Positions 4,964-32,000 of a DNA stretch of 32,000 nt are shown in pieces; position 1 is the stretch's first letter, and every line of letters starts with the position of its first letter. Under the pieces are notes generated by a model. That model was not told the origin of the DNA and searched no databases. It saw nothing but the letters and a program-made list of their open reading frames with translations. This DNA comes from Halogeometricum borinquense DSM 11551 (lineage in GTDB: Archaea > Halobacteriota > Halobacteria > Halobacteriales > Haloferacaceae): NCBI RefSeq assembly GCF_000172995.2, contig NC_014729.1, positions 1,620,001-1,652,000 of the forward strand. Direction: 5' to 3'. A program made the translations under genes and the position numbers.

Positions 4964-5998
4964 TCAGTCGAGACCTCCACTCGGGGTGGTCTCATCTCCA
5001 GTTTCGTCGTCTATCGTGTCGTCGTTAATCTCTGCGAGCCCCGCATAGCGGTCCACGAGGAGCACAGCGCCAGCGCCGACGATTGCCATCGCGGCGAAGA
5101 TAGCGTACGCTTCCGTCGTCCAGACGCGACCCAACTCAGCGAGATTCTCTCCCGTCTTGGCAACGGGTGCGCGCAGTGCGCCGACGATGAGGGCGACGAG
5201 GAACGCGAGCGTCGGCTTGCGGTGGTGTTCGAGTGCCCATCGAACGGCGTGTGCGATGGTGAATAGGCCGATAACGGCACCGAGCATGAACGCAACGACG
5301 ATCAGACCGCTTTCTGTGACAGGTGTCGTTGACCCGCCGACGACCAGTCCGAGGAGGCCATCGACGAACGACTTCAGCGCACCGGACATGTACTCGTACT
5401 GGCCGAGAAGGATGAGCAACAGCGATCCCGAGATACCGGGGAGAATCATCGCGCTGACGGCTATCGCTCCCGCGAGAACGGTAACGGGAAGCCCCGTTCC
5501 GAGCGAGGTTCCCGCCTGGCCGGAAGCGACAAACGCGAAGACGAACCCGGCGATGGCGGCACCGATTCGGCCGGGCGTGTTGACTTCGACTTCGGTGAAC
5601 AGCACCCACGCCGAGGCGGCGATGAGACCGAAGAAGAACCCGAATGTGAGGACCGGGTAGGTGTTGATTCCGATGTGCATGACGCGAGTGATGCTTGTGA
5701 CGGAGACAGCGATACCAGCCCCCAGGGCGATGAGGAACCCAACGTCCATTTTCTTGAGTGCCGCGATTGCGTCCCCCCGTCGTTCGGGGACGACACCGCC
5801 GAGAACGGCCATGATTCGGCCGGGCGAGATGGCTGTCACAGCCGCGATAAGTCGTTCGTAGATACCGGTTATGAGTGCGATGGTACCGCCGGAAACGCCG
5901 GGGACAGCGTCTGCAGCTCCCATGCAAATACCTTTGATGAAAATGACAACCCACGAGGAATTGAGTTGTCCGCGAGCATCGTCCGAGGGCTTCGACAT
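4964..5998 (-). CDS. DUF368-family polytopic membrane protein (the family of bacterial polyprenyl-phosphate translocase PopT)
   Basis: The conserved N-terminal block MGAADAVPGVSGGTIALITGIYERLI is followed by multiple hydrophobic helices. I prefer the internal start MSKPSDD (ATG at 5998-5996) over the track start at 6076, whose extra 26 aa look non-coding-like. Confidence 0.75.
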   Translation of the reverse strand: MSKPSDDARGQLNSSWVVIFIKGICMGAADAVPGVSGGTIALITGIYERLIAAVTAISPGRIMAVLGGVVPERRGDAIAALKKMDVGFLIALGAGIAVSVTSITRVMHIGINTYPVLTFGFFFGLIAASAWVLFTEVEVNTPGRIGAAIAGFVFAFVASGQAGTSLGTGLPVTVLAGAIAVSAMILPGISGSLLLILLGQYEYMSGALKSFVDGLLGLVVGGSTTPVTESGLIVVAFMLGAVIGLFTIAHAVRWALEHHRKPTLAFLVALIVGALRAPVAKTGENLAELGRVWTTEAYAIFAAMAIVGAGAVLLVDRYAGLAEINDDTIDDETGDETTPSGGLD

Positions 5999-6147
5999 GC
6001 GCAGTCGTTTGTCGCCCGGGTACTCCCATGTTTCGCTCCGCACGACAGTCTGCGACGTGTCGCAGTTCGGCGCCACTCGGACGGATCGGTGTCAGACGCC
6101 GCGACCAAGGAGAATGTTGAAACGCTCACGGTGAGTGCAACACGACA

Positions 6148-7440
6148 ATGGAAATCAGTATCATCGGCAGTGGGTACGTTGGAACGACTATCGCCGCCTG
6201 CTTCGCTGATGTCGGCCACAACGTGGTGAACGTGGACATCGACGAGGAGATCGTAGAGACGCTGAACAGCGGCAACTCGCCAATCCACGAACCCAGCCTC
6301 GACGAACGTATCGAAGAGCACGCCGGAGACCGACTCCGCGCGACCACCGACTACGATGCCATTCTCGACACCGACGTGACGTTCCTCGCCCTCTCGACAC
6401 CCTCCACGGACGACGGCCACATCGATCTCTCGGTGATGGAGGCAGGGGCGAAATCGCTCGGCGCGACGCTCGCGGAGAAAGACGACTACCACCTCGTCGT
6501 CACGAAAAGTACTGTCGTGCCGACGACGACGGAAGAGGTTATCGCCCCGATTCTCGAAGAACACTCGGGCAAGACCGTCGGTGAGGACTTCGATGTGGGG
6601 ATGAACCCCGAGTTCCTCCGCGAGGGGTCGGCCGTAGACGACTTCCTCGACCCCGACAAGGTCGTCCTCGGGTCACACACCGACCGCGCGGCCGAACGAC
6701 TTCGCGGCGTGTTCGACCCGCTCCTCGAACGCGCACCGGACGCCTCTCTCGTTGAGACGGGCATCCGCGAGGCCGAGATGATCAAGTACGCCAACAACGC
6801 GTTCCTCGCAGCGAAGATTTCGCTCGTCAACGACCTCGCTAACATCTGCAAAGAGTACGAAGTAGACACTGATGAGGTACTGGACGCTATCGGTCTCGAC
6901 TCCCGTATCGGTTCGGAGTTCCTCGGTGCGGGCGTCGGATGGGGTGGCAGTTGCTTCCCGAAAGACGTCGCCGCCATCGTCGCCGCCGCCCGCGACGTGG
7001 GCTACGAACCCGCGATGCTCGATGCGGCCGTCGAGGTGAACGACAACCAACCGGTTCGGATGCTCGACATTCTCCGTGACCACGCTGATCCAGACGGTGC
7101 CCGAATCGCCGTCCTCGGACTCGCGTTCAAACCGGGGACTGACGACGTGCGCAACTCCCGCGCGATTCCGCTCATTGACGCGCTCCTTGACGCAGGTGCC
7201 GACGTGGTCGGATACGACCCAGTAGCGACCGAGAACTTCCGCGATAAGTTCCCCGACCTCGACTACGCCGACTCGGCAGAAAGCGCACTCGACGGTGCCG
7301 ATGCCGCGCTCGTCGTCACCGACTGGGACGAGTTCGCCGCACTGGACGACGAGTTCGACGCGATGGCCGACGCCGTCGTCGTGGACGGTCGGAACATCGT
7401 CACGCGACGTGAAGGTATCGTCTACGAGTCACTCGTCTGA
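6148..7440 (+). CDS. aglM: UDP-glucose 6-dehydrogenase (nucleotide-sugar dehydrogenase)
   Basis: The N-terminal Rossmann motif is IIGSGYVGT. The catalytic-Cys block is GWGGSCFPKD. The C-terminal block is GLAFKPGTDDVRNSRA. The size is 430 aa. The position next to aglB matches Haloferax volcanii. Confidence 0.9.
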   Translation: MEISIIGSGYVGTTIAACFADVGHNVVNVDIDEEIVETLNSGNSPIHEPSLDERIEEHAGDRLRATTDYDAILDTDVTFLALSTPSTDDGHIDLSVMEAGAKSLGATLAEKDDYHLVVTKSTVVPTTTEEVIAPILEEHSGKTVGEDFDVGMNPEFLREGSAVDDFLDPDKVVLGSHTDRAAERLRGVFDPLLERAPDASLVETGIREAEMIKYANNAFLAAKISLVNDLANICKEYEVDTDEVLDAIGLDSRIGSEFLGAGVGWGGSCFPKDVAAIVAAARDVGYEPAMLDAAVEVNDNQPVRMLDILRDHADPDGARIAVLGLAFKPGTDDVRNSRAIPLIDALLDAGADVVGYDPVATENFRDKFPDLDYADSAESALDGADAALVVTDWDEFAALDDEFDAMADAVVVDGRNIVTRREGIVYESLV

Positions 7441-7453
7441 TCGGCATCGGTGG

Positions 7454-7489
7454 TCCCACACGATTCGTTGATCCCACACGATTCGTTGA
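7454..7489. repeat. Perfect 18-bp tandem duplication (TCCCACACGATTCGTTGA x2) in the aglM/aglB convergent spacer
   Basis: The two copies were read directly at 7454-7471 and 7472-7489 and are identical. Confidence 0.9.
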
Positions 7490-7592
7490 TCTAAGAGTTG
7501 TGGCCTGAATTCGTCTCTAACCGGGCGCGGCTTCTGTTTTATGTTACTCCGAGGAGCGGACGCACCGCTTTCGGTCTCGATTGTGGGTGACT

Positions 7593-7619: not shown

Positions 7620-10600
7620 CTATACTGCGGGTTTCGCCGCGAACGCCGACTCGGGGACGACGATAGATGATGACGTCGTGCTATCGGTCGAATCCGAGGA
7701 GTCAGACGAATCCGACGAACTGGACGAATCAGTTGATTCCGACGAATCCGACGACCCCGACGAGTCAGACGAATCCGAGGAGTCCGACGACTGACCCGTG
7801 GTCAGTTCGAGTTTCTGCGCCGTCCGCTGCAGTTCGACGGAGATGTCGCCGGCCTTGTCACCGTTGACCTGTCCCTCCGAGACGGAGAGGTTCGACTGGT
7901 AGCCAACGATGTAGCCGCTTTCGTTGAGACTTGCACCGGACGAGATGGTGTACGGGCCAGTCGCGCGGACGCTGACGTTCGTGTAGCCGTTGTCCGGGCC
8001 GTACTCGCTGTAGCCCGTCGTCGAGTACGGGAGCGTCATCGTGAACTCGCCGTCCTCGTTCGTTTGGGCCTGTTGTGTGTACTCGAATGTGCTGTTCTCG
8101 GTCGGAATCTCCATCTCGACGCTCGCGGTGACAGTGCTGTTCGCGGGCGCACCGCTACCTTGCACCGTCGCACCGGGGACGCGCTCGAAGCTCTTGACCC
8201 ACGCGGCACTGCTTCTCGGGAGCATTGCCTGCGGTCTGACCTGCGCGGCACGCGCGTCACCGTAGACGAGTTGCAGGTAGTCGTTCGACGAGGTGGCGCT
8301 GGAGTTGCTCACCTTCACGAGACGGTAGTGTTCGAGTGCTGGCACGCGCTCCTCGGGGAACGTACCGATGCCACCGATCTGCGAGGTTCCGTCTTCCTCG
8401 ACGAACTCCTTGGCCGCGCTCATGTTCCCATCGAAACTCCGGACGAGCGTCGCGTTACCGGCCGGATTACCGGCGACGCTTACGGGACCCTGCGACGTCT
8501 GTACGGTTCGCGGTTCCCAGTCTACGACGATGGCCGACGGGTCCTTCGCACTACCGTGGTAGTAGTACAGGCGCGTCATCATGCTGTCGTAGAACCGCTG
8601 GTCGCGGACGAGGAAGTTCCCAGTGGGTCTCCCATCGTTCAAGCGGTAAACGCGCTGTTCGTAGAATTCTGCGGACGAGAAGTTATCTTCGGCGTCGTAG
8701 AACACCGATGGAGCGCTGAACTTCGACCCGGGCGTGGCCATCTTCCAATCGACCATCACGTACCGGGTGTTGTTTCCTTCGGTGCTCTGGGAGGCGATAA
8801 CGTCCTGTGCTTGCGTCTCGTTCGGCGCGAGCAGGAAGTTCGCCGAGTCAGTTGCACCTTCCTGGAACGGGTTAGCGTTCGGGATTCGCTCACCTTGGAC
8901 GGTGATCCAGTGACCGTAGTCCCACCACGAGAGGATCCCGTAGGATCCGTCCGCGTACTGGAAGTCGTCGGTCTTCTCGTACGATCCGTAATACGCCATC
9001 TCGTTGTTCGCACCGCCGAACGTGCCTTCTTTCGGCGTGTTCTCTTTGGTCCACTCGAACGAGGATTCCCATTTGAGAACCTCACTCGGACTGTGCCCCT
9101 GGCTCGTCTCCCACGCCGTGTTCGACTTGTCGAGCGCCGCCGTTTCCGTGTTCCGGACGTTGAGCGGAACGAGGAGAACGGGTGCTGCGATGAGAAGAAC
9201 GACCATGGCGATCGAGACGACCTGATACAGTTCGAGATCCGTCACGGTCGACATCGTGGCGCGAACGTCGAGGAATGAGAGTACCTCGCTGAGGAGGTAC
9301 GCGTTCACGACGACGACGATGACGGCAAGATAGTAGTGGAAGCGAAGTTGGGTGAACGCCGCGGAGGTCATGAAGACCGCCCAGACGATGACGAACAGGT
9401 GTTCGGGGTCCTGCTTTGCGAGTAGCGCAGCACCGACGATAATGGCGCTCACCAGTGCGAGGCCGACAAGTTGACCGCTGATTCCGAGGAGGCTACCGAT
9501 GCCATTCGGGAAGGCGGGGACGAGGAAGATGAGTCCAATAATCGCCAGACCGCCGAAGACGTAGCCGTAGTCGCGGGTGTTGCCTCGCTGAACGAGCGGC
9601 TTTGCGAGCATCCACGTCGCACCCGCAATTCCAGTGAACAGCGTGAAACCGTAGTCGGCGACGATACGGTTCACTGGTGTCAGCTGAAGTCGGCTGAGAG
9701 TGTCGGGAGAGAGGTACGGTTGTGCCTCACCGATAGTCCGGGTCGTTGCACCGGCGCTGAACCCGAGGATGCGAAGGAAGTTGTTCGACAAGAGTCGCCA
9801 CATCCCGGGAAGTACGAAGTAGACGATCCCGAGTGAAATAAGAACGATCCCAAAGACGGCTGCGGGGTAGAAACTCGGACTCACGTCGCGGGATTCGAAC
9901 TGTCGAGCAAACCATGCGAGGAAGACAGCGCCACCAGCGACGATGAGTGCAAGAAGCGGCTGTACCAGTGAGAAACTGGTCGCAGAGAATCCGAACTCCT
10001 CGATTTGAATAACCATCAGCACGGCGGTGACACCCATGGAGACGGCGGCGACGAACGCCGTCGGCTCCGGGCTCTTCCCGTTCGCAACGTCGCTCGCCAT
10101 CTTCACGAGGACGAACGCCCCGAGGACGCCGACGATGAGAACACCCGGCGGCCACACCCACATATAGAGGGCCGTGGCAACGCCTGCGATGACTGCCCAC
10201 TTGGTCGACGACCGAATGGCGTCGAAGTCGCGCTCTGCGACGATTTCCCAGATGGGCATCTCTTTCTCGGCGACCGCGAACGCGATCAGTAATGCGGCGA
10301 CGGATATGGCTTGGAAGAACGGCTCGACACCGTTGTGGTCGGAGACGCCAACGAGGGTCCGCTGGAGGAACAGACCCGGCATGAGTCCGAGAAGAATCGC
10401 CGCAAAGACGCCCGGACCACGACCGGCGAGTCGTTTACCGATTATGTAGGCCGGAATCGCTGTCAGCGCGCCGAATACGGCGGGCGTGACCAACAGCGTC
10501 TTCGCAATGAGCTCTTGGCTTGGACTACCTAGTCCGATGACAAGAGCCGCAGTTGCGACGATTTGGTCGTAGAGCGTCCCGAACTGCCCGACGCTCGTTC

Positions 10601-10865
10601 CGTAGGGGAAATGCGTCCACGGGTCGAATGGTATCGTGGAGGGCCAATGCCTGACGGTGTAACTCACCTCGCGGAGATGATACCACGCGTCATTTCCGTC
10701 AAAGAACACTTCTCCGTTTCTGATAAACTTGCTATACGACTGGAGTCGGATGGTCAACATAAGGACCATCACCACGAGTAAGGCGGGGATGTGGTACCAG
10801 TCTTCGAAGCGCTCGAGGACCGAAGTCGTCTCGTGGTCCTCGCGACGCTCGTTGTCTACGCTCAT
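7620..10865 (-). CDS. aglB: Archaeal oligosaccharyltransferase AglB (STT3 family)
   Basis: 1081 aa with about 13 N-terminal transmembrane helices. The first-loop motif is FFDGNDAWYHLR, the EL5 TIxE motif is TRTIGEAQP, and the WWDYGHW motif sits at aa 647-653 (nt 8913-8927 encode WWDYG). A large C-terminal soluble domain carries many N-x-S/T sequons. The C-terminus ends in a Ser/Asp-rich tract. Confidence 0.95.
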   Translation of the reverse strand: MSVDNERREDHETTSVLERFEDWYHIPALLVVMVLMLTIRLQSYSKFIRNGEVFFDGNDAWYHLREVSYTVRHWPSTIPFDPWTHFPYGTSVGQFGTLYDQIVATAALVIGLGSPSQELIAKTLLVTPAVFGALTAIPAYIIGKRLAGRGPGVFAAILLGLMPGLFLQRTLVGVSDHNGVEPFFQAISVAALLIAFAVAEKEMPIWEIVAERDFDAIRSSTKWAVIAGVATALYMWVWPPGVLIVGVLGAFVLVKMASDVANGKSPEPTAFVAAVSMGVTAVLMVIQIEEFGFSATSFSLVQPLLALIVAGGAVFLAWFARQFESRDVSPSFYPAAVFGIVLISLGIVYFVLPGMWRLLSNNFLRILGFSAGATTRTIGEAQPYLSPDTLSRLQLTPVNRIVADYGFTLFTGIAGATWMLAKPLVQRGNTRDYGYVFGGLAIIGLIFLVPAFPNGIGSLLGISGQLVGLALVSAIIVGAALLAKQDPEHLFVIVWAVFMTSAAFTQLRFHYYLAVIVVVVNAYLLSEVLSFLDVRATMSTVTDLELYQVVSIAMVVLLIAAPVLLVPLNVRNTETAALDKSNTAWETSQGHSPSEVLKWESSFEWTKENTPKEGTFGGANNEMAYYGSYEKTDDFQYADGSYGILSWWDYGHWITVQGERIPNANPFQEGATDSANFLLAPNETQAQDVIASQSTEGNNTRYVMVDWKMATPGSKFSAPSVFYDAEDNFSSAEFYEQRVYRLNDGRPTGNFLVRDQRFYDSMMTRLYYYHGSAKDPSAIVVDWEPRTVQTSQGPVSVAGNPAGNATLVRSFDGNMSAAKEFVEEDGTSQIGGIGTFPEERVPALEHYRLVKVSNSSATSSNDYLQLVYGDARAAQVRPQAMLPRSSAAWVKSFERVPGATVQGSGAPANSTVTASVEMEIPTENSTFEYTQQAQTNEDGEFTMTLPYSTTGYSEYGPDNGYTNVSVRATGPYTISSGASLNESGYIVGYQSNLSVSEGQVNGDKAGDISVELQRTAQKLELTTGQSSDSSDSSDSSGSSDSSESTDSSSSSDSSDSSDSTDSTTSSSIVVPESAFAAKPAV

Positions 10866-10991: not shown

Positions 10992-12047
10992 CTATCGGTT
11001 CTCGTACCAATCGACGAATCGTTCGATACCTTCCTCGAAGCTGACCTGCGCCTCCCAATCGAGATGTTCGCGGGCGCGCGACGTGTCCGAGACGTACACC
11101 TTCTGGTCGCCCTCGCGCCACTCGTCGTACGAGATATCGGTCCGGGTACCGGTCTTCGATTCGAGAATGTCGAGGAACTCAAGGAGACTCGTCGTGTTCT
11201 CCGCACCCCCACCGATATTGTACACCGCAGGCTTGTCTTCCGGATCGGAGAGGAATGCGTCGTAGGCTCGGATGAGGTCCTTGACGTAGAGAACGTCACG
11301 AACCTGCTTTCCGTCACCGAATATCGTCAATGGCTCGTCCCGGAGTGTACTGATGGCGAAGTGAGCCACCCAGCCCTGGTCTTCGTTACCGAACTGACGA
11401 GTTCCGTAGATACAACTCATCCGGAACGCTGCGGCGTCTACTGCGCCGCGTTCGGCGTAGTCCTGAACGTAGAGGTCAGCCGTAAGCTTGGATACGCCGT
11501 AGGGGGTGTGTTCACAGCCGTCGATAGAGAGTGTCTCTGGGATTCCGTTCTCGAAGTCCGAGTCGTCGTACCAGTATCGGTTCTCCTCCTCGCGCACGGG
11601 GATTTCGTTGACGTTGTTCCCGTAGACTTTGTTCGTTGAAGCGACGACGACTGCGGGATCACTGTCGGCTTTTCGAGCGGCTTCGAGGACGTTGAACGTC
11701 CCTTCGGCGTTCACCTCAAAGTCCGTCCGTGGGTCCGTAAGCGACGCCGTCACGGCGACTTGCCCGGCCGTGTGGACGATTGCATCGTGCCCTTCTACGA
11801 TTGACTCGAGCGTCTCAAAGTCGCGGATGTCGGCCTCAACTAACTCAACGTCCGGGTAGTTCTCCTCGATGTAGTTCCAGTTGTAGGCCGCGGTGTTTCG
11901 GCTCTCGTCGGCCTTCTCTAGTGTTTCCGTTCGACTCAAATTGTCGAGTGCGGTCACGTCAGAACCGCGCTCTGCGTAGTACTCTACTGCGTGGCTTCCG
12001 ACGAATCCAGCACCACCCGTCACGAGCACGGAATCAAGTGTCGTCAT
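10992..12047 (-). CDS. Extended SDR, CDP-paratose/tyvelose 2-epimerase-like NDP-sugar epimerase
   Basis: Blocks shared with Salmonella CDP-tyvelose 2-epimerase as I recall it: TGGAGFVGS, DNLSR, HTAGQVAVTAS, STNKVYG, the YxxxK motif (PYGVSKLTAD), GTRQFGNEDQGWVAHF, GDGKQVRDVLYV and EGDQKVYVSD. Confidence 0.75.
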   Translation of the reverse strand: MTTLDSVLVTGGAGFVGSHAVEYYAERGSDVTALDNLSRTETLEKADESRNTAAYNWNYIEENYPDVELVEADIRDFETLESIVEGHDAIVHTAGQVAVTASLTDPRTDFEVNAEGTFNVLEAARKADSDPAVVVASTNKVYGNNVNEIPVREEENRYWYDDSDFENGIPETLSIDGCEHTPYGVSKLTADLYVQDYAERGAVDAAAFRMSCIYGTRQFGNEDQGWVAHFAISTLRDEPLTIFGDGKQVRDVLYVKDLIRAYDAFLSDPEDKPAVYNIGGGAENTTSLLEFLDILESKTGTRTDISYDEWREGDQKVYVSDTSRAREHLDWEAQVSFEEGIERFVDWYENR

Positions 12048-12053
12048 TGGCTC

Positions 12054-13181
12054 TCAGTTGTCCCCGACGAGGCCTTTGTCCTCTAGTTCAGCGTGGGCTT
12101 CCTCGAAGTTGTCTTGAGCGTCCTGTTCGCGTCCCCACTCGACCAACTCACGCATTCCTTCCTCAAATGTCACGGAGGGTTTGAAGTCTAAGAGTTCCGC
12201 TGCACGCGACGTGTCGGCGTAACAGTGGCGGATGTCTCCCTGTCGGAAGTCGTTAGCAATCTCAGGTTCTAACTCGTCACTCTTGCCGTACAGATCGATG
12301 AGCGTCTCGGCGATTTCGGTGATAGTCTTCGGATTCCCCGTTCCGAGGTTGAGCGCCACGTCTTCGGCTTCGTCTCGTTCCATAGCGAGTCGGTTCGCTC
12401 GGGCGATATCACTGATGTGGATGAAGTCGCGCGTCTGTTCACCGTCCTCGAAGATGAGTGGTGGGTTGTCGTTCTTGATTCGACTGGAGAAGATCGCACA
12501 GACTCCCGTGTACGGGTTCCCGAGGGCCTGACGACTCCCGTAAATGTTGAAGTACCGGAGTGCAACTGCCGGAATATCGTACGAACGTGCGACTGATAGC
12601 GTCAGCTCCTCTTGATCTTTCTTGCTGATGGCGTAGACGCTGGTACTCTCTCGGGGTTTTTTCTCGGATGTCGCAATAGGCTCTAACTCGGTTCCACAGT
12701 CCGGGCACACGTGTTCCCACTGTCCCTCGGCCATCGTTTCGGAGCCGCGTAGCGATGGGTAATGGAGAGTATCTTCTTCCGGACAGTGGTACGCGCCTTC
12801 TCCGTATATTGACATCGAGGACGCGACGACAATCTTCTCAAGCGAAATATCCTCGTTGACGATAATGTCGAGAATACGGGCAGTGGCAAGCGTATTCACT
12901 TCAACGTACTTTTCGATCTCGTACATCGACTGGCCGACGCCGACTGCGCTCGCTTGGTGGTTCAGTACGTCTGCCTCTTCTAGGAGTTCCGTCATTAACT
13001 CCCGATCGCGGACGTCTCCCCAGACGTACTCGGCTTCATCGTTCAGATAGTCGGGTTCATCGTCGTGGACTTGTTCTGTCAGATTATCCACGACAGTCAC
13101 GTCGTATCCGGATGCGACGAGTTCGTCGACAATGTGACTCCCGACGAATCCCGCGCCTCCTGTTACGAGGACGTTCGTCAT
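12054..13181 (-). CDS. Extended SDR NAD-dependent sugar epimerase/dehydratase with a ~35-aa Cys/His-containing insertion
   Basis: The motifs are TGGAGFVGSH, the catalytic Ser region SSMSIYG and the YxxxK motif (VYAISKKDQ). About 60 residues separate the Ser block from YxxxK, against about 25 in GalE-type enzymes. The insertion contains YHCPEED...WEHVCPDCG. Confidence 0.75.
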   Translation of the reverse strand: MTNVLVTGGAGFVGSHIVDELVASGYDVTVVDNLTEQVHDDEPDYLNDEAEYVWGDVRDRELMTELLEEADVLNHQASAVGVGQSMYEIEKYVEVNTLATARILDIIVNEDISLEKIVVASSMSIYGEGAYHCPEEDTLHYPSLRGSETMAEGQWEHVCPDCGTELEPIATSEKKPRESTSVYAISKKDQEELTLSVARSYDIPAVALRYFNIYGSRQALGNPYTGVCAIFSSRIKNDNPPLIFEDGEQTRDFIHISDIARANRLAMERDEAEDVALNLGTGNPKTITEIAETLIDLYGKSDELEPEIANDFRQGDIRHCYADTSRAAELLDFKPSVTFEEGMRELVEWGREQDAQDNFEEAHAELEDKGLVGDN

Positions 13182-13245
13182 ACTCGGTCGGTGGATACCG
13201 CGGTCTAATAAAAACCGTGGTTTAAAAATATCTGATGTGTCTCTA

Positions 13246-15194: not shown

Positions 15195-15339
15195 ACTGGC
15201 CAGATAAAGGAATGAGATGAAAAATACTGTGTTCCAGATATCTTCTTATACACACACAAGTTAGGTCAGCAGTGGATCGATTATTTCGAAGCTACGCAGA
15301 GAACAAGAGTTTTAACGTTCCTTGAATCTCTATCCGGTA
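15195..15339. promoter_or_regulatory. AT-rich divergent promoter region between the nucleotide-sugar operon and the GT2 block
   Basis: A TATA-like GTTTTAACG (about 15309-15317) lies about 27 nt upstream of the ATG at 15340. On the other strand an ATTTTTCAT element lies about 30 nt upstream of the ATG at 15194. The spacing suggests leaderless or short-leader transcripts. Confidence 0.45.
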
Positions 15340-17918: not shown

Positions 17919-18030
17919 CGGGACAGATCATGCAATTTTCCTCTGATATGAGAAACATCCCACCTATGCCCGTCATTCGGGACTGTGTCGTGTTCCGTCT
18001 TCGACCGCTCTGCCGAGTCTCTGTCCGCCC

Positions 18031-22238: not shown

Positions 22239-22241
22239 CTG

Positions 22242-23619: not shown

Positions 23620-24864
23620 ATGGACCTCTCGACAGCGTTTCGCCGCACACGGCGCTCACGTCCGCGCCTGTTCTGGCTCTCCGCCGTTACGCTGGCGTCG
23701 TTGCTCGTGTTTCCCGCCGTTGAAATCGCCCTCCAGTCGGCGAACCTCGTCCCCGGATTCACGTTCTACGACTTCCGTGGCGCCTTCTATACTGCTGGAG
23801 AACGATTCCTCTCTGGAAAGAACCTGTACGCCGACGTACACAACCCGTACGTCTATCCGCCCGTCGTCGTCCTCCTGTTTGCACCCTTCACTGTCGTCTC
23901 TCCGTGGATGGCGGGTCTGTTGTGGAATGTCTTCTCGCTGGCTGTGTTAGGTGCGGGACTATTCGCGCTCGTTCGCTCCTTCGGAGTTCGCCTTTCGATT
24001 CCGTCGAAAGCCGTTCTACTGTGGGCACTGGTCGGGTTCTTCCCGACGATTTTGTGGCTCAAAGCTGGGCAAGTATCTGGCTTCCTCACGGGACTGTTCT
24101 GCTTTGCCGTTGCAGCACACCGACGGAGTTGGCAAGATGATGATTCTACCACGCTCGCATTAGCTAGCGGTGCGCTGACGACGATTTCAAGTTCGTTCAA
24201 GCCGTTCTACGCACCGTCTGGCGCGCACCTCCTCCGCGACAAGAAACGTTTTGTCGGAGCTGTCGCCGCCGTTGTGGGAATCGTCGGACTGAGTCTCTTC
24301 TTCGGCGTTGAGACGTTCACTGACTACCTCGGTGTTCTCACGCACGGCAAGGGTTGGGGACAGGCCACTGAACCCGGCGGAATCAGCACCGACATTACCA
24401 ACTGGGGCCCGTTCTTCTTCCGGCCGCTGTACTTTTTCGGATCGGCTGCGCTGTACATCCGTCTCGCGTTGACATTCGGCGTCGCCGGACTCGTCCTGTA
24501 TAGTCGCCGCGATGACTCAGCACGGTCGGAGTACGCCGCACTCGCACTCGGACTGACGACAATTCCGCTGGCCAGTCCGATCCCCGACCTGTTCGCTGTC
24601 ACACCTCTTATCCCCGCATTTATCGTTTCGCTGTTCAACGAACTCCAACTTGACGACGGTCTCCCCGAGATTCCTGTTCTGTCCGTACTCCTATTCCACG
24701 TTCACGCGTATACACTCGGATTCTTCGCAGGATTCGGTGCTACTATCATCCCTGCGGTTTCTGCTCTTGAACCATTATTGCCGTTCTTGCAGGCGGGGAT
24801 GTGGGCGCTGGCGCTCATGTTTGGACTCCAAGTGTATCGAATCGGCCAATCTGTTCGCGCCTAA
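23620..24864 (+). CDS. GT87/DUF2029-like GT-C membrane glycosyltransferase, paralog 2
   Basis: 414 aa with the same architecture as paralog 1. The shared blocks are DFRGAFYTAGERFLSGKNLYADVHNPYVYPPVVVLLFAPF, GFFPTILWLKAGQVSGFL, TNWGPFFFRP and LFAVTPLIPAF, all colinear with 22242-23498. Confidence 0.5.
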   Translation: MDLSTAFRRTRRSRPRLFWLSAVTLASLLVFPAVEIALQSANLVPGFTFYDFRGAFYTAGERFLSGKNLYADVHNPYVYPPVVVLLFAPFTVVSPWMAGLLWNVFSLAVLGAGLFALVRSFGVRLSIPSKAVLLWALVGFFPTILWLKAGQVSGFLTGLFCFAVAAHRRSWQDDDSTTLALASGALTTISSSFKPFYAPSGAHLLRDKKRFVGAVAAVVGIVGLSLFFGVETFTDYLGVLTHGKGWGQATEPGGISTDITNWGPFFFRPLYFFGSAALYIRLALTFGVAGLVLYSRRDDSARSEYAALALGLTTIPLASPIPDLFAVTPLIPAFIVSLFNELQLDDGLPEIPVLSVLLFHVHAYTLGFFAGFGATIIPAVSALEPLLPFLQAGMWALALMFGLQVYRIGQSVRA

Positions 24865-24928: not shown

Positions 24929-25657
24929 ATGGTTTCTGGCGACATTGCCGACGCCGACGGCCCGATGGACGCAGTTCCGGGCCCCGGACGCGACGCGTGT
25001 GACGCTCATGCGGCACTCGACGTAGAAGCCGTACTCTCGGACACTTCGGTTGTGATCCCGAGCCGGGACGAGCAGAACTACACGAGCAAGAGCGTCCCCG
25101 ACTGGCTTGAGGTCGTCGTCCGGACAGACGACGGGCGAAGCGTCGCCCGCAACCGCGGCGTTGAAGAGGCAACGGGTGAGTGGATTGTTCTCGCCGACGA
25201 TGACATTACGTTCCCGACCACGCTGACAGCTATGCTCGTTGACTCTATGCATACGTGCCATCTCGCTGGTCTGGAGGATTTCTGGCCGATGGACACGCTA
25301 CTGACTCGGTACATGGTCTTTCACCGGTCGCTGTGGGACGCCGTTGGCGGTTTTGATGAGAGTCGAGAACACGGTGAAGACTCCGACTTTGTCTACCGAT
25401 GCGCGGACGCAGGGGCAAAGATACGTCCGCTTCCTCGTAACATCGTTCCACACCACGACGCCGATACCGAGTTCTCCGCGCTTGAACACGTCGAATGGCT
25501 CTGGTATCTCCTGCGGCGACATCCGGTTCGCATGGCTCCGAAAGCGGCGCTGTTGGGTCTCCAGAAGCTTGGACTGGTCGAACCTCCCGTGACAGACTAC
25601 CCGGATGGGTGGTCTAGCCAACTCATTCAGCCTTCCGGAGAGGGAGACGAGAGATGA
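24929..25657 (+). CDS. Small GT-A/GT2-like glycosyltransferase
   Basis: The motifs are SVVIPSRDE, ARNRGVEEATGEWIVLADDDITF (the DxD region) and FHRSLWDAVGGFDE. The stop overlaps the next start (ATGA at 25654-25657). The true start could be an internal Met. Confidence 0.55.
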   Translation: MVSGDIADADGPMDAVPGPGRDACDAHAALDVEAVLSDTSVVIPSRDEQNYTSKSVPDWLEVVVRTDDGRSVARNRGVEEATGEWIVLADDDITFPTTLTAMLVDSMHTCHLAGLEDFWPMDTLLTRYMVFHRSLWDAVGGFDESREHGEDSDFVYRCADAGAKIRPLPRNIVPHHDADTEFSALEHVEWLWYLLRRHPVRMAPKAALLGLQKLGLVEPPVTDYPDGWSSQLIQPSGEGDER

Positions 25658-26844
25658 ATATCGTTCACATCACGGCGGGTCTCGTTCCAATCCACGGTGA
25701 GTTCGGCGGCGGCGTCGAGCGCCATATCCGAGCAGTCACGACGGGTCTTGCTGCCCGGGACCACAATGTGACAGTCGTGGACCGCCGCCACGATGTTGAT
25801 GACCCACTCAGCATTGACGGGGTTGATGTACTCCGACTCGCGGCCCCACGGGTCCAGACAGGTCTACTTGACGGGTGGTTGGACCACGTGCTGAACGAGT
25901 GTTTGTACTCGGCCGGTCTTCGCCGTGCCCAAGAGCGAATTGCCGAGGCCGATGTGGTCCACGCGCATAACATGTACGCGGGCCTTGCCGCGCGGCGCCT
26001 CGCCCGGAAAGCACGAGTTCCATTCGTCTATACCTGCCACAACGGAATGTGGTGTACTGACGACGTGAACACCTACGAACAACAAGTCGTCCGCCGCTTT
26101 GAGGGGAGTTTGATGCGAGATGCCGATGCGTCAATCGCTGTGAGCGAAGCCGTCGCTGACGGGGCACGTACGTACGGCGACGCCGACCCGACGGTGATTC
26201 CGAATGGTGTTGACACCGAGATCTACGGCCCCGATGCGGACACCCGTTCAGTCGAAGACACCTACGAGCTCGACGGCCGAAAGACCGTCCTCTTCGTTGG
26301 TCGTCTCGCCCGAGCAAAAGGGGTTGATGTCCTCGTCAAGGCCGCTCGTGACGTACTCGACAGCAGCAACGACCCGGTCCGGTTTGTCCTCGTCGGTCCT
26401 GACAAACACATGTTCGGCGGATCTGCCGCAGAGTCGTATCCTACGGAGATACGGCGTTTGCTTGATGAATTGGGCGTCCGAGACGACTTCGTATTCGCCG
26501 GACAGGTATCTGATGAGGAACTTGTCTCCCTCTACACGGCCGCCGATGCGTTCGTCCTTCCGTCACGGTACGAGGCGCAGGGGATGGTCCTCTTGGAGGC
26601 ACTCGCCAGCGGAACGCCTGTTGTCGGAACAGATGTCGGTGGCATCTCCGAAGTCGTTACCAGCGATGTCGGCCGTGTTGTCCCACCTGAGGCCCCGGTG
26701 CAGTTAGCAGAGGCACTCCTCGCTGTCCTCGATGCTGACCGAAACGGCGCGATGTCAGTCACCGCCCGTGACTACGCCGAACGGACCTATGCATGGCCAC
26801 GTATCGTCTCCCGAATCGAATCCGTGTACGAGGGGGTCAGATAG
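25654..26844 (+). CDS. GT4 family (GT-B) glycosyltransferase
   Basis: The C-terminal Glycos_transf_1 signature is LFVGRLARAKGVD...VLPSRYEAQGMVLLEALASGTPVVGTDVGGISEVV. Confidence 0.85.
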   Translation: MNIVHITAGLVPIHGEFGGGVERHIRAVTTGLAARDHNVTVVDRRHDVDDPLSIDGVDVLRLAAPRVQTGLLDGWLDHVLNECLYSAGLRRAQERIAEADVVHAHNMYAGLAARRLARKARVPFVYTCHNGMWCTDDVNTYEQQVVRRFEGSLMRDADASIAVSEAVADGARTYGDADPTVIPNGVDTEIYGPDADTRSVEDTYELDGRKTVLFVGRLARAKGVDVLVKAARDVLDSSNDPVRFVLVGPDKHMFGGSAAESYPTEIRRLLDELGVRDDFVFAGQVSDEELVSLYTAADAFVLPSRYEAQGMVLLEALASGTPVVGTDVGGISEVVTSDVGRVVPPEAPVQLAEALLAVLDADRNGAMSVTARDYAERTYAWPRIVSRIESVYEGVR

Positions 26845-28077
26845 ATGCACGTCCTGTTCGTCGGCACGCGCGCGCCACTGACGCCGGAGCGTCGCGGCGC
26901 TATCGAGAAACTCACCTTCGACCTCGCTTCGACGTTGGCGTCTGAGGGGCACGACGCAACGGTTCTCACTGTCGGTGAATCCGGCCGCCGATACACCGCC
27001 GAGGGCGTTCAACTAGTAGAAATAACCGAACCGATAACGCGCCCTCCCTCGCATGTCACGCCCGTCGTGGAGTTCGGTCGCAAAGCACGCCGAGTCGCCG
27101 ACAGAATCCACCGTGAGAATCCGGTGGATGTGGTTCATGCTGTCTACTACCCGAACCTTCTCGGCTTCCGACCTCCCGGCGATGCTCCGCTCGTCGTCGC
27201 CGAGCACAACGCCCACCCGTGGCGGAAGGAGCATCGTTTTATTGAGGAATTGACTATTACACACCGACTCCGCTGGGAGGCTGACACCTACATCAGACTC
27301 GCGGAGGCCCACGCTGCCTTCTTCGGCGCCGAGAGAGTTCTTAGCGTCAGCGACGCCCACGGCGAGTGGATCGACCGAGCGATTCCAGAAGCGCGGTCGA
27401 AGCGCGAGACGATGTACAACTTCGTCGATACAGACGTTTATCGCCCCGATACCGCATCAGAACGCGATATCGACTTCCCCGATGGGAAAACAGTCCTGTA
27501 CGCGGGTCGAAAAGTCCCTCACAAGGGCCTTCACAGGGCAGTCAGTGCGATATCCAAGATGGAGACCGACGCAACACTCGTCGTTCTCGGCCCACTCGGA
27601 AGTGGATTCAGCGATGTGGATTCTCTTGATGGTGTAAATCCCGATGATCTCGAGCCATATCTCGGGAGTGTTATCGAGGATGCACAAAATTCCGGAGTGA
27701 CCGATCAAATCTCGTTCCCTGGCTATGTCGCTGACGCCGACCTTCCGGCCTACTACGCCGCAGCGGATGTCACCACGTTCCCGAGTGTCCTCGAATCGTT
27801 TGGTATGGTCCCGGTGGAATCGATGGCGTGCGGAACACCAGTCGTCGCCCACGACGTGCCGCCGATAGATGAGACGGTTCTTGATGGTGAGACTGGGTTC
27901 CTGACAAACGAGGTGTCGGCGTCGGCACTCGCAGCAGCCCTGGATCGACTTCTCACCGACGATTCTCTTCGAAGCCAGTTCGCTGAACGGGGACGGAATC
28001 GAGCGGTCGAGCGATTCGACATCGAAACCGCCGTACAGGAACATATCCGCTTGTACGAGCGCGTTCACAGCGAGTAA
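26845..28077 (+). CDS. GT4 family (GT-B) glycosyltransferase
   Basis: The signature is YAGRKVPHKGL...TFPSVLESFGMVPVESMACGTPVVAHDVPPIDETV. The ATG directly abuts the previous stop. Confidence 0.85.
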   Translation: MHVLFVGTRAPLTPERRGAIEKLTFDLASTLASEGHDATVLTVGESGRRYTAEGVQLVEITEPITRPPSHVTPVVEFGRKARRVADRIHRENPVDVVHAVYYPNLLGFRPPGDAPLVVAEHNAHPWRKEHRFIEELTITHRLRWEADTYIRLAEAHAAFFGAERVLSVSDAHGEWIDRAIPEARSKRETMYNFVDTDVYRPDTASERDIDFPDGKTVLYAGRKVPHKGLHRAVSAISKMETDATLVVLGPLGSGFSDVDSLDGVNPDDLEPYLGSVIEDAQNSGVTDQISFPGYVADADLPAYYAAADVTTFPSVLESFGMVPVESMACGTPVVAHDVPPIDETVLDGETGFLTNEVSASALAAALDRLLTDDSLRSQFAERGRNRAVERFDIETAVQEHIRLYERVHSE

Positions 28078-28116: not shown

Positions 28117-29514
28117 ATGCCAGACCCCGCCGACCGACCGCACGTCGTCTTCTTGACGGTCGATTCGCTCCGGCGTGATGATGTCGGTTGTTATGGACAA
28201 CTCGACATTGAGTACGATCTCACCCCGCAAATCGACACGCTCGCAGACGAGGGGGCACGGTTTGATGCTGCCATCAGCAACGGACCGAGTACGCTCTACT
28301 CGTTCCTGGCGAGTCAGACTTCAACGTATCCGCTCGAAGACGAAGAACATACGCGAAACCGACCGTTCCTTGCCGAGGAACTCTCCAAGGGTGGATACGA
28401 GACGGCGGCGTTCGTCACGAACCCCTTCCTGACGACACACTACGGCTTTGACCGTGGGTTCGATCACTTCCGAGATTTCACGGGATCTGAGGCCGATGAC
28501 GAGGGGACGGCAGGTCTCAAGCGGGATTTCATGGATAAACTCAACCGGGCGCTCCGTCGTTCACCGTTCCTATACGAGATTGCAAAAGGGGTTAAGAACT
28601 TCAGTTCGGCTCCGTTCCCCAGAGCGGGGCAAGTCAACGACGAAGTTGTTACGTATCTCGAATCGACCGACGGTGATGACCCGCTGTTCTTGTGGGCACA
28701 CTATATGGATCCGCATCATCCGTATCTGCCCGAACCAGAATACCGTGATCTCCCATTCGTTCCTTCGCTGAGTAAGTGGGAGATCATCCGTTTGTCGGCG
28801 AAGATTGACCTCATCAAGCGCGACGATTACGACCGGACGAACATCACCGACGAAACGCTGTCGAACCTTCGTGCTCTCTATCGCGCACAAATAAAACGTA
28901 CCGACGACGCTATCAAGCGAGTCGTTCGTTCGCTCAAAGAGAATGGTCTGTACGATGATACCCTGCTCATCATTGCCTCAGACCACGGCGACGAGTTCTT
29001 CGAGCACGGGTCGCTCGGACATTCTCCCCAGTTGTACGACGAGCTCATCCACGTCCCGTTCGTCGTCAAGACTCCCGCGGACCATGAGACAATCGAATCG
29101 GTGGAAGGCTTGATGGCTTACCTGGACATCCCACCGACAGTACTTGATTTTGCAGGGATAACACCGCCGTCTTCGATGCGTGGTGAGAGCGTTCGTGAGT
29201 CATTCGAGACGGGAGCAACGGATCGAGAACACGTCATCAGCGAATACACTTACTGGGACGACCGAATCACCTCGCTCCGAACGCCCGAGTGGAAGTACAT
29301 CGTTGATTATCTCCACGACCGAGAGGAACTGTTCGATATCAACACGGATCCGACAGAACAGACGAACGTGCTGTCCGACACTCCAGACGTAGCTGCGGAA
29401 CTCCGCGAAATCGTCCGGACGCATCTTGATGCCGAAGGGGAACACCAGAGTACGGCGTACGATGATATCGACGACGAAATGCGAGGTCAACTCGAAGACC
29501 TCGGCTATCTGTAA
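28117..29514 (+). CDS. Cytoplasmic sulfatase-like hydrolase/transferase (alkaline-phosphatase superfamily) lacking the C/S-x-P-x-R formylglycine motif
   Basis: The AP-superfamily blocks are VVFLTVDSLRRDDVGCYG, TPQIDTLADEGARFD and IIASDHGDEFFEHGSLGHS. At the position of the sulfatase CxPxR motif the sequence is NGPST (28279-28293). There is no signal peptide or transmembrane segment. Confidence 0.75.
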   Translation: MPDPADRPHVVFLTVDSLRRDDVGCYGQLDIEYDLTPQIDTLADEGARFDAAISNGPSTLYSFLASQTSTYPLEDEEHTRNRPFLAEELSKGGYETAAFVTNPFLTTHYGFDRGFDHFRDFTGSEADDEGTAGLKRDFMDKLNRALRRSPFLYEIAKGVKNFSSAPFPRAGQVNDEVVTYLESTDGDDPLFLWAHYMDPHHPYLPEPEYRDLPFVPSLSKWEIIRLSAKIDLIKRDDYDRTNITDETLSNLRALYRAQIKRTDDAIKRVVRSLKENGLYDDTLLIIASDHGDEFFEHGSLGHSPQLYDELIHVPFVVKTPADHETIESVEGLMAYLDIPPTVLDFAGITPPSSMRGESVRESFETGATDREHVISEYTYWDDRITSLRTPEWKYIVDYLHDREELFDINTDPTEQTNVLSDTPDVAAELREIVRTHLDAEGEHQSTAYDDIDDEMRGQLEDLGYL

Positions 29515-29583
29515 CCTCTCTTCACCGCGGAAGACTCTACTGAAGCGGTGGCTATTTGGCAGTGTGCCGCCGAACGCATCTCA

Positions 29584-30997
29584 ATGTCTGATGTCGCCGA
29601 GCGACCGCCGATAGTTTTTCTCACAATCGACTCGCTGCGACGCGACGAAGTTGGTTGCTACGGGGACAGAGGTGTTGATTATGACCTCACTCCCGAAATC
29701 GACTCGCTCGCAGCGGATGGCGTTCGATTCGACACCGCTATCAGCAACGCGCCGAACACGCTCTTCTCGTTCCTTGCGACGCTTACCTCCACGTACCCGT
29801 TAGCTAAGAAGGGCAACACGGCCGGGCGACCCGCAGTGGCTGAAGAACTCTCGGACGCCGGTTACCGGACGGCAGGGTTCCACTCGAATCCGTTTCTCTC
29901 CCGTCACTACGGGTTCCATCGCGGCTTTGATGTGTACCACGACTTCACCGACGGTAGTGGCGATGGCGACGATGACGGTGAATCCTCGCTGACGAACCGG
30001 TTCTTCGAGGTGCTCAATCGAACGCTTCACCGATCTCCTCTCCTGCACGAGTACGCAAAGGAGACAAAGAACTACTTCACGCCACCGTACACGCGCGCTG
30101 GTCCCATCAACGACGCTGCTACCGAGCATCTTCGAAACGTGGACTTCGATGACCCGCAATTCGTCTGGGTCCACTATATGGACGCACACCACCCCTATCT
30201 CCCGACGGGGAAGTACCGAGAACTCCCGTTCCTTCCCGATATTTCACCGGTTCGAACCGTTGACCTTGCAGCAAAGATTGACTTGGTCAAACACCCCGAG
30301 TACGACGGCGCTAGAGCGTCCGTCTCGGAACGTGATGTAGCGGATCTCCGTGCTCTCTACCGAGCACAGGTCAAACGCACCGACGACGCCGTTGGCGAAA
30401 TTGTCGCCGAGCTAAAGCGCCCAGGGAATCTATGAGGAGGCATGTATCGTCATCGCTTCGGACCACGGTGACGAATTCCTCGAACACGGGTCGCTCGGTC
30501 ATTCCCCGCAGTTGTACGACGAACTCATCCACGTCCCGTTCATTGTCAAACCGCCGGCCGAATATGATACAGTAGACGCTATCGAGGATCTGACAGCGTA
30601 TCTCGACATCGGACCGACCTTCCTCGACCTCGCGGGTACCAGCGCACCTGATGAGATGGAGGGTCAGTCGTTCCTTGACGCCCTCGAAAATGGAAAAACG
30701 GAGCGTGAGGCGGTCATCAGCGAGTACGCCAACAGCGGAAAGCGAATCACGTCCCGGCGGACACTCGAGTGGAAGTACATCCTCGACGATTACCACGACC
30801 GAGAGGAACTGTTCGATCTCACAACTGACAGTACCGAACAGACTGACTGCTCTACTGACCGACCGGAAGTACTGGAGTCGTTCCGCGATGCCGTCCGAGA
30901 ACGCATGTCTCATGAGGAGTTCGATACCGACGCATCGTTCGACGACGACGTGGACGAGGAGATGCGACAACAGTTAGAGGACCTCGGCTACCTCTGA
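29584..30997 (+). pseudogene. Tandem paralog of the sulfatase-like gene, disrupted by a 1-nt frameshift
   Basis: Track ORFs 29548-30435 and 30512-30997 are colinear with 28117-29514 (MSDVAERPPIVFLTIDSLRRDE ... DEEMRQQLEDLGYL). The frame breaks at ...AELKR|PGNL*. In the +1 frame the text continues GIYEEACIVIASDHGDEFLEHGSLGHSPQLYDELIHVPF, matching paralog 1. One extra C in the CCC run at 30420-30422 explains the shift. Confidence 0.7.
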
Positions 30998-31054
30998 GAA
31001 CCTCGTGGACGAACCGCGACCTATTTTGCGGCGGTACTTCAACCGAGAGAATAT

Positions 31055-32000
31055 ATGACCGAGCAAGAGGCAAGCGACATCAGCCTCGGTGGCGAGACGG
31101 TCAAAGCGGCACTGGGGAAGTTCATAATGGCCCTCATCGGCTTTGTGGGGACTATTATCTTCGCTCGGTGGCTTGGCTCCGACAGCCTCGGTGGCTACTA
31201 CCTCCTCTTGACGGCCGCAGCTCTCTCTAACCGTCCCGTTCAGGGCCTTGCCGAAGCGATACAGAAACGTGGATCGGAGTCGGGCTTCGAACTGGAGCAG
31301 ACGCTCTCTGTCGGGACACTCGTCGTCATCGGATGGACCGCTCTCGCCGCTCTCATCGCGTACGCTCTCCGCGGCTACCTCCAATCGTTTTTCGGATTTC
31401 CGGGGTCAGTTTCTGCGTTTGTCGCCCTGTTAGCTTCACTGAGCGGCTTCTTCATCCTCCAGTCGCAACTCGTTGCACTCGGACGTATCAGTCGAAATCA
31501 GTGGTTTGACACCGTCCGGTCGTACCTCACATTCCCAGCACAACTCGGATTTCTCATCCTCGGATGGGGTGCTGCTGGCGTCGCCATCGGAGAAGTCGTG
31601 GCGACGCTCCTGTTGTACGTCCCGATGTACCGGTCGTTCGGGACTGGATTTGCACGTCCCACCGTCGAGACGATGCGGTCGCTATGGGAGTACGCGAAGT
31701 ACAGCATTCCGAACGAGTACCTGACGCACACGTACAGCCAACTGGATATGCTCCTCCTTGGTTTTCTCGTCGGAAAGAGCGCGACCGGCGAGTACGGGGT
31801 CGCCCTCCGTCTTACTGTCCCCGCGGCGTTCGTTTCGATGGTCGCCACGCAGGGCTTGTTCTCGCGGGTCAGCAACCTTCGGTCGAAGGGTGAGCGTGTC
31901 GATATCGACGTACAGAACACGCTTTCATTCGCCAGTATTGTTGCTATCCCGATGCTTGTTGGAGGCGTTCTTCTCGATGAACAACTTGTCGTGACGGCGT
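31055..32000 (+). CDS. Wzx/AglR-type oligosaccharide flippase (MOP superfamily polysaccharide biosynthesis protein), N-terminal ~315 aa. The 3' end lies outside the window.
   Basis: This ORF is not in the ORF track because it has no stop in the window. My translation from the ATG at 31055 is MTEQEASDISLGGETVKAALGKFIMALIGFVGTIIFARWLGSDSLGGYYLLLTAAALSNRPVQGLAEAIQKR..., followed by repeated hydrophobic helices to the window end. A TATA-like CTATTTTGCG lies about 30 nt upstream. Confidence 0.7.
   Translation, partial: MTEQEASDISLGGETVKAALGKFIMALIGFVGTIIFARWLGSDSLGGYYLLLTAAALSNRPVQGLAEAIQKRGSESGFELEQTLSVGTLVVIGWTALAALIAYALRGYLQSFFGFPGSVSAFVALLASLSGFFILQSQLVALGRISRNQWFDTVRSYLTFPAQLGFLILGWGAAGVAIGEVVATLLLYVPMYRSFGTGFARPTVETMRSLWEYAKYSIPNEYLTHTYSQLDMLLLGFLVGKSATGEYGVALRLTVPAAFVSMVATQGLFSRVSNLRSKGERVDIDVQNTLSFASIVAIPMLVGGVLLDEQLVVTA

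Follow-up and report, generated by a model that had tools for sequence, protein, structure and literature searches.

Which glycan is built by the island of sugar-processing genes next to aglB in Halogeometricum borinquense DSM 11551, and how was this island put together? Archaeal N-glycans are species-specific surface codes that affect virus attachment, mating, and S-layer stability, and differences between species in such gene clusters are already established. We analyzed a stretch of 32,000 nucleotides of this genome (NC_014729.1, positions 1,620,001 to 1,652,000; hereafter the window, in whose numbering positions are given), assigning gene families with Pfam and NCBIfam models and PDB sequence searches, and fold matches with AlphaFold 2 models and Foldseek (Table 1). 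CP050274.1 (GCA_011765365.1) and a Logan assembly match the window at 100% identity, and AOHT01000024.1 is near-identical to it. Every gene listed in an initial annotation, which was made from the letters alone, was recovered at its coordinates with Pfam and NCBIfam, and the WWDYG motif of AglB (amino acids 647–651) lies exactly at 8913–8927. The locus is likely to be the main protein N-glycosylation cluster of Hgm. borinquense, with aglB, aglM, and a DUF368 gene at one end and aglJ at the other; as part of the same reading, we consider it likely that lateral exchange put its interior together, drawing on at least three modules circulating among haloarchaea. A literature search for the Hgm. 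borinquense N-glycan found no paper.

The major cluster of Haloferax is defined by its bracketing between aglB and aglJ (PMC5867893). In Hgm. borinquense, the island extends about 4 kb past the window end (32000) through a GT4 gene and a GT2 gene (Glyco_transf_21, here GT2d) to an AglJ equivalog, and the presence of this gene at the far end makes the locus a classic aglB-aglJ-bracketed cluster, matching that definition. We found each of its components: an AglB with WWDYG, a far-end aglJ homologue, and an interior of glycosyltransferase and sugar-processing genes. Like the cluster of Haloferax volcanii, it is bracketed by AglB, an AglM equivalog, and an AglJ equivalog, keeps the conserved left flank, contains a Wzx-type flippase, a methyltransferase, and a nucleotidyltransferase (NTP-transferase), and follows the logic of a dolichol phosphate (Dol-P)-sugar synthase combined with outer-face GT-C enzymes. 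No protein gave an equivalog-level NCBIfam match to AglG, AglI, AglE, or AglF (19.5–19.8 bits against 440 for the AglG model). Beyond the Hfx. volcanii set, the island holds a UDP-xylose synthase (UXS), a TyvE-like 2-epimerase, a 4-epimerase-like SDR, three GT-C enzymes, an FkbM-type methyltransferase, an ASST-like propeller, and two sulfatase-fold genes.

The enzyme set had been described in the initial annotation as matching no characterized archaeal N-glycan pathway. This holds in that no cassette protein reaches the NCBIfam equivalog cut-off for a characterized Agl glycosyltransferase, but AglJ, AglM, the Wzx flippase, and the sulfatase-fold proteins all have characterized precedents. Among 80 aglB loci and the homologues that we followed of two cassette proteins, the GT2::flippase fusion and the 589-amino-acid protein TM589, the same cassette did not occur in any species with a characterized N-glycan.

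In 67 of 80 haloarchaeal species, a DUF368/VCA0040-like gene such as the one at the left end here is located no more than 10 kb from aglB; Halorubrum, Haladaptatus, and Halococcus are among the genera. Linkage across so many genera suggests that the DUF368 protein recycles dolichol phosphate after the AglB reaction.

Conservation of the flank contrasts with replacement of the interior. When all window proteins were compared by tblastn with the 10 kb on either side of aglB in 80 other haloarchaeal species, the flank (glpA, orc1, HAD, cutA, methyltransferase, DUF368, and aglM) was conserved across Haloferacaceae (55%–89%), and the interior differed even in Hgm. limi, whose AglB is at 79%, and in Halopelagius fulvigenes. 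GT2::flippase, TM589, the two GT87 proteins (GT87a and GT87b), and GT4b had no orthologue-level match beside aglB in these species, Hgm. limi included, and TM589, GT87a, and GT87b had no match at E < 1e-3 in any of the 80 loci. The earlier proposal of a kept flank and an exchanged cassette is thus borne out by this comparison, but it is not a new inference, since fixed ends with a swapped interior have been published for Haloferax aglB-aglJ clusters (PMC5867893). The cassette has a lower GC content than the flank (0.566 versus 0.61), and a check of the window for signs of mobile elements showed no tRNA, no Rfam family, and, among its gene calls, no transposase or integrase.

We found that modules of the cassette recur in the same order, at about 40%–87% identity, in metagenome contigs such as a Logan contig from SRR33116394 and in three haloarchaea, Halopelagius longus (QQST01000001), Halobaculum rubrum (CP082284), and Halobacterium sp. 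DL1 (CP007060), so that the uniqueness claimed for the island does not stand. Module A (SDR1, SDR2, UXS, NTP-transferase, and GT2::flippase) is 60%–87% identical in Hpl. longus, Hbc. rubrum, and the Logan contig (L091), and in Hpl. longus it lies directly beside aglB-aglM-DUF368. Module B (GT2b, TM589, methyltransferase, GT87, GT2c, GT4, GT4, and Wzx) is syntenic at 39%–74% in DL1 and partly, at 69%–82%, in the Logan contig, and module C (GT4, GT2d, and AglJ) is found in Hpl. longus at 47%, 86%, and 83%, respectively. In the related cassettes, a PMT_2-type GT-C gene that is absent from the window follows directly after GT2::flippase; the window instead has a duplicated GT87 gene, and the related cassettes lack both the ASST-like gene and the sulfatase-fold genes (Sulf1 and Sulf2). 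Features that set Hgm. borinquense apart from the other loci sampled are the ASST-like gene, the FkbM-type methyltransferase (a single 38% match, in Hbc. rubrum), a second GT87, and a tandem sulfatase-like pair. We know of no N-glycan studies of Hpl. longus, Hbc. rubrum, or Halobacterium sp. DL1. The locus is evidence that such islands draw on a limited number of exchangeable modules common to several haloarchaeal families. Inside the related glycosylation locus of Hbc. rubrum (L093, 5061–6282), an IS240-family transposase lies beside a truncated UDP-glucose dehydrogenase fragment, which hints at module rearrangement.

The most interesting part of the locus is the unit of epimerases, GT2::flippase, and GT-C enzymes. 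The minus-strand nucleotide-sugar operon (10992–15194) encodes SDR1, SDR2, UXS (SDR3), and the NTP-transferase. The enzyme of one PDB match to SDR1, 9rl0, epimerizes CDP-glucose to CDP-mannose (PMC13098431). SDR2 aligns in two stretches, both to its PDB relatives and to Pfam Epimerase. UXS matches human UXS1 over its full length (residues 5–311), with the next family at only 131 bits, and the NTP-transferase falls below the cut-offs of TIGR01208 (227 bits) and of the AglF model (156 versus 400). Next to this operon, the fusion gene GT2::flippase joins a GT2 domain, for which the top NCBIfam models are ArnC, Dol-P-hexose transferase, and AglJ, to an MprF-type membrane domain, and its product is a candidate Dol-P-sugar synthase with its own flippase.

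GT2::flippase has 188 homologues at E ≤ 1e-3; the best 120 of these 188 are 45%–99% identical, and the names of some point to Methanoregula, Methanomicrobia, and Methanoperedens. Methanoregula boonei carries Ugd, an NTP-transferase, a UXS-like SDR, two further SDRs, and then GT2::flippase, all in one direction. Among 38 metagenome loci with enough flank around GT2::flippase, SDR2-type and SDR1-type genes lie directly upstream and co-oriented in 34; UXS is present in 18, an NTP-transferase in 14, Ugd in 13, a PMT_2-type GT-C in 8, and aglB in 2. Haloarchaea carry the SDR2-SDR1-GT2::flippase unit, and so, to go by M. boonei and database names, do Methanomicrobia. This arrangement suggests that an epimerized nucleotide sugar is loaded onto dolichol phosphate and passed outward to GT-C enzymes, and if UXS feeds the unit, the sugar would be a pentose. 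We tentatively propose, with limited confidence, that the unit is an undescribed archaeal pathway in which a Dol-P-pentose (a xylose epimer) or another rare epimer is made, flipped by the same protein, and passed to outer GT-C enzymes, decorating the Hgm. borinquense N-glycan. Our literature search found no pentose-containing archaeal N-glycan pathway, and a 2024 review mentions neither xylose nor pentose.

In functional terms, the unit is similar to the bacterial Arn (L-Ara4N) pathway (Ugd, ArnA decarboxylase, ArnC, ArnE/F, and ArnT). Both have a UDP-glucose dehydrogenase, an SDR-family UDP-glucuronate (UDP-GlcA) decarboxylase, a polyprenyl-phosphate GT2 (ArnC being the best model here), a flippase function, and an ArnT-fold GT-C. 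However, the aminotransferase, formyltransferase, and deformylase genes are absent and two epimerases are present instead, the flippase-like domain is of the MprF type and forms one protein with the GT2, and the sugar is presumably accepted by a glycan or protein rather than lipid A. The likeness is one of functional analogy, not family membership. If the proposal is true, Archaea would have in this unit a counterpart to the bacterial Arn and mycobacterial decaprenyl-phosphate-arabinose systems, and a lipid-linked pentose would extend the known donors of outer-face glycosylation in Archaea.

The candidate outer-face enzymes of this pathway are three GT-C enzymes besides AglB. GT87a and GT87b match PF09594 over the full profile and are 40% identical to each other, and GT87b is the closer of the two to the single GT87 of the DL1 (51%) and Logan contig (70%) cassettes. 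TM589 matches no Pfam family, PMT_2 included, but its AlphaFold model matches ArnT (5f15, E 1e-7), followed by AftA, ALG12, STT3, and EmbB; this confirms the count of three that had been given from the letters. TM589 has about 12 transmembrane (TM) segments, with D34 and D39-E40, the acidic motif of the first outer loop, invariant just after the first, and its profile family has 872 matches, with PMT_2 found in 3 of 10 distant members examined. Upstream of TM589 lies the small GT2b gene; its orthologues (74%–82% identical) directly precede the TM589 orthologue in L090 (DL1) and L091, and GT2b is a candidate second Dol-P-sugar synthase paired with TM589. At the DL1 locus, a 121-amino-acid EamA/TMEM234-like small membrane protein is encoded between the small GT2 and the TM589 orthologue (L090, 9635–10000), an arrangement resembling GtrA/GtrB/GtrC or ArnE/F; the corresponding 112-nucleotide gap in the window (17919–18030) contains no such gene.

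These membrane enzymes also raise the question of whether the whole island serves AglB. Only part of it might do so, with GT2::flippase, GT2b, TM589, GT87a, GT87b, and the ASST-like protein modifying another outer-face target, such as an O-glycosylated S-layer glycoprotein, a glycolipid or lipid anchor, or a second N-glycan. ArnT (a Foldseek match of TM589), PMT, and GT87 relatives act on lipids or Ser/Thr and not on N-glycans, the SDR2-SDR1-GT2::flippase genes usually occur without aglB nearby (as in the metagenome counts above, and in the 21.8-kb M. boonei locus, which has none near), and pairs of ASST-like and GT-C genes are found far from any glycosylation cluster. We nevertheless regard such a division as unlikely, given that all of the genes concerned sit between aglB and aglJ and that Hpl. 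longus and loci L099 and L141 likewise have the triad directly beside aglB. Outer-face addition has a precedent as well: AglS of Hfx. volcanii adds the last N-glycan sugar outside the cell from Dol-P-mannose. AglD belongs to the same outer-face process (PMC5867893).

The right-hand block (GT4, GT2, Wzx, and sulfatase-like genes) could be read differently, as a Wzx/Wzy-type exopolysaccharide or capsule locus that merely lies beside aglB. A Wzx/MOP flippase with several GT4 and GT2 genes is typical of such loci, and haloarchaea do make sulfated exopolysaccharides. This explanation is improbable, as neither a Wzy-like polymerase, a chain-length regulator, nor an initiating phosphoglycosyl transferase was found among the gene calls, the block is enclosed by aglB and aglJ, and the Hfx. 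volcanii agl cluster itself contains a Wzx-type protein, AglR. For the N-glycan cluster as we read it, the block would supply cytoplasmic glycosyltransferases; one of them, GT2c, is syntenic and 66%–69% identical in L090 and L091, and 51%–54% identical in Haloferax gibbonsii and Haloferax prahovense.

Sulf1 and Sulf2 have a characterized parallel. In Halobacterium salinarum, the sulfatase-fold proteins Agl30 and Agl31, encoded in the aglB cluster, are N-glycan sulfotransferases (PMC11980604), a precedent that runs contrary to the title claim of the initial annotation for this element. Sulf1 and Sulf2 share this fold and this location: the Hbt. salinarum aglB (VNG1068G) cluster likewise has sulfatase/alkaline-phosphatase-fold genes inside, and Sulf1 and Sulf2 are soluble like Agl31 (PMC11980604), but here the genes form a tandem pair and the remaining genes differ. 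Sulfatase-like paralogues adjoin aglB in 28 of 80 haloarchaeal loci, with matches at paralogue level only (24%–36%). We rejected the default assignment as hydrolytic (formylglycine type I) sulfatases because neither Sulf1 nor intact Sulf2 has the C/S-x-P/A-x-R formylglycine motif (the region aligned with it is ISNGPST), and both proteins are cytoplasmic, with neither a membrane segment nor a signal peptide found.

Together, the family assignments allow a pathway to be sketched. Since an AglJ equivalog closes the island, the first step is probably the known one, in which AglJ loads the first hexose onto dolichol phosphate at the cytoplasmic face. The soluble GT2c, GT4a, and GT4b and the GT4 and GT2 beyond the window would lengthen the glycan. 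As donors, the NTP-transferase would provide a nucleoside diphosphate (NDP)-glucose, SDR2 and SDR1 4- and 2-epimers, AglM UDP-GlcA (a family assigned at equivalog level), and UXS UDP-xylose (by the 320-bit match to human UXS1). The FkbM-type protein may methylate a sugar and Sulf1 and Sulf2 may sulfate it, as Agl31 does in Hbt. salinarum; Wzx would flip the lipid-linked glycan, and AglB would transfer it to asparagine. In parallel, GT2::flippase and GT2b would make Dol-P-monosaccharides that reach the outer face, where TM589, GT87a, and GT87b could add them to the glycan or glycoprotein, a step modeled on AglD/AglR/AglS of Hfx. volcanii and on bacterial ArnC/ArnT. The DUF368 protein would return the freed dolichol phosphate to the inner face. 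From gene content, the glycan may be methylated and sulfated, possibly with xylose or a xylose epimer; for phosphorylation, which had also been suggested, we found no support.

Several observations weigh against parts of this account, in which we infer each step beyond the family assignments. At only 18 of the 38 metagenome loci, about half, does the SDR2-SDR1-GT2::flippase triad have UXS with it, and TyvE-type enzymes are known to act on NDP-glucose (PMC13098431), so the lipid-linked sugar could be a hexose and not a pentose. The approximately six cytoplasmic glycosyltransferases and three GT-C enzymes exceed what a typical haloarchaeal N-glycan of four to five sugars needs; this surplus suggests that a portion of the genes may serve a second glycan or some other product, and it counts in favor of the divided function considered above. 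The dTDP-rhamnose genes rmlABCD are complete elsewhere in the genome (Hbor_31470–31510), with no aglB entry given for the species (PMC4022621), so Hgm. borinquense may have a second glycan pathway. Sulf1 is a candidate Agl31-type glycan sulfotransferase by fold and location. The Foldseek matches of the ASST-like protein are non-specific, although the sulfotransferase Cpz4 is among them.

The state of some reading frames belongs here too. Both of the sulfatase-like genes reported initially are present, but the second is split in this assembly, as in CP050274.1, by an extra C at 30420–30422 (GCGCCCAGGG in place of GCGCCAGGG), which may reflect either faulty assembly or a frameshift specific to the strain. 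A 352-amino-acid GT4 about 0.5–1.6 kb beyond the window end (L086, ~14400–15460) has no gene call and carries a 13-nucleotide difference in CP050274.1, where coordinates downstream of it are offset by 13 nucleotides relative to L085. Such defects would fit a decaying island, in which the cassette consists partly of non-functional remnants of lateral transfer. We think this highly improbable: Sulf2 (470 amino acids) and the downstream GT4 are both intact in three other assemblies of the species (AOHT01000024, ERR481281, and SRR9434877), one added base in a short run of C (CC versus CCC) is a change that faulty assembly could produce, and the remaining open reading frames are full length with strong family matches.

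The gene content described initially is confirmed, and the interpretation given with it is partly supported: it was right in outline and overstated on uniqueness and novelty. Current views are not overturned by this island, which supplies targets for genetics and mass spectrometry.

Table 1. Genes of the aglB-aglJ island of Hgm. borinquense and its flank, with three gene pairs from other genomes. Positions are those of the window unless a locus is named.
Feature	Position	Strand	Evidence or remark
glpA, N-terminal part	1..1051	-	594-aa (amino acid) DAO/Fer2_BFD gene here in identical contigs; frame open, zero stops
DUF368/VCA0040-like polyprenyl-phosphate translocase	4964..6076	-	PF04018 2.1e-63; ~8 hydrophobic segments; called as 344 aa (4964-5998) in some assemblies
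aglM, UDP-glucose 6-dehydrogenase	6148..7440	+	NCBIfam NF041297 752.8 bits, cut-off 670 (equivalog)
aglB, oligosaccharyltransferase	7620..10865	-	TIGR04154 996 bits; STT3, AglB_core, AglB_L1
SDR1, TyvE-like NDP-sugar C2-epimerase	10992..12047	-	PDB 9rl0 1.3e-69, 1orr 5.8e-60
SDR2, GalE/UDP-GlcA-4-epimerase-like	12054..13181	-	PDB 6dnt, 4zrm, 6wjb, 6kv9 (MoeE5), 6zl6
UXS, UDP-glucuronate decarboxylase (UDP-xylose synthase)	13246..14187	-	human UXS1 (4gll, 2b69) 1.9e-94, 320 bits
NTP-transferase, sugar-1-phosphate nucleotidyltransferase (RmlA-long/AglF-like)	14184..15194	-	PF00483 1.9e-37
GT2::flippase, GT2::LPG_synthase_TM fusion with MprF-type flippase-like membrane domain	15340..17100	+	PF00535 1.9e-31, PF03706 8.1e-52
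GT2b, small soluble GT2 (AglJ/Dol-P-hexose-transferase-like)	17202..17918	+	TIGR04182 98 bits (cut-off 325), NF041391 78 bits, both below cut-off
TM589, 589-aa GT-C-fold glycosyltransferase, divergent ArnT/PMT_2-like branch	18031..19800	+	AlphaFold 2 pLDDT 74.7, pTM 0.77
ASST-like beta-propeller	19853..21220	-	PF14269 9.9e-12 (45.3 vs 27), PF05935 2.2e-9 (37.2 vs 24.2)
FkbM-family methyltransferase	21405..22238	+	PF05050 2.1e-19, TIGR01444 3.4e-29
GT87a, GT-C polyprenyl-phosphate-sugar-dependent transferase	22242..23498	+	PF09594 53.1 bits vs 25 cut-off; ~10 TM
GT87b	23620..24864	+	PF09594 64.3 bits vs 25 cut-off
GT2c, short GT2-like	24929..25657	+	PF00535 29.3 bits
GT4a	25654..26844	+	PF00534 3e-38, PF13439; 60% identical in DL1 cassette
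GT4b	26845..28077	+	PF00534 4e-37; 61% identical in DL1 cassette
Sulf1, soluble sulfatase-fold protein	28117..29514	+	PF00884 1.8e-39 (136 bits)
Sulf2, sulfatase-like, tandem with Sulf1	29584..30997	+	PF00884 70 bits (N-terminal part)
Wzx/MOP-type flippase	31055..32000	+	Polysacc_synt_3; NF007773 9.7e-11; open frame; 491 aa in full, runs off window end
AglJ equivalog	L085:16772-17812, ~4 kb past window end		346 aa; TIGR04182 450.9 bits, cut-off 325
ASST-like + membrane-protein pair, Haloprofundus halobius	L095 8001-11060		
ASST-like + membrane-protein pair, Haloferax namakaokahaiae	L096 8001-11002		
ASST-like + membrane-protein pair, Haloarcula salinisoli	L097 6001-9026		

The ASST-like gene, which lies tail-to-tail with TM589, belongs to a family that is very common in haloarchaea. 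Its AlphaFold 2 model (pLDDT 83.4) consists of a helix (2–33), the propeller, and a second helix (417–440), with hydrophobic helices at both termini, and the protein is predicted to face outward. H210 is invariant and lies in PYDWTHIN, whose aligned counterpart in Cpz4 is PYDYVHIN; ASSTs and other propellers are not told apart by the fold search. In each of three sampled genomes, the ASST-like gene immediately precedes a gene for a membrane protein of 534–558 amino acids, with the stop and start overlapping or 7 nucleotides apart. One of these three membrane proteins matches PMT_2, one is 38% identical to the PMT_2 one, and the third has no Pfam match, and together the two genes look like a recurrent ASST-like and GT-C unit in haloarchaea. 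A clear sulfotransferase assignment was not upheld, given the generic fold match and the recurrent GT-C neighbor; because the gene recurs beside GT-C genes elsewhere, its label is weak evidence for sulfation, and a role in sulfation is only one possibility.

Two long open reading frames, at 257–742 on the plus strand and 31498–31920 on the minus strand, are antisense to glpA and to the Wzx gene and are not genes; their tblastn matches in other species arise only from conservation of the real genes that they overlap.

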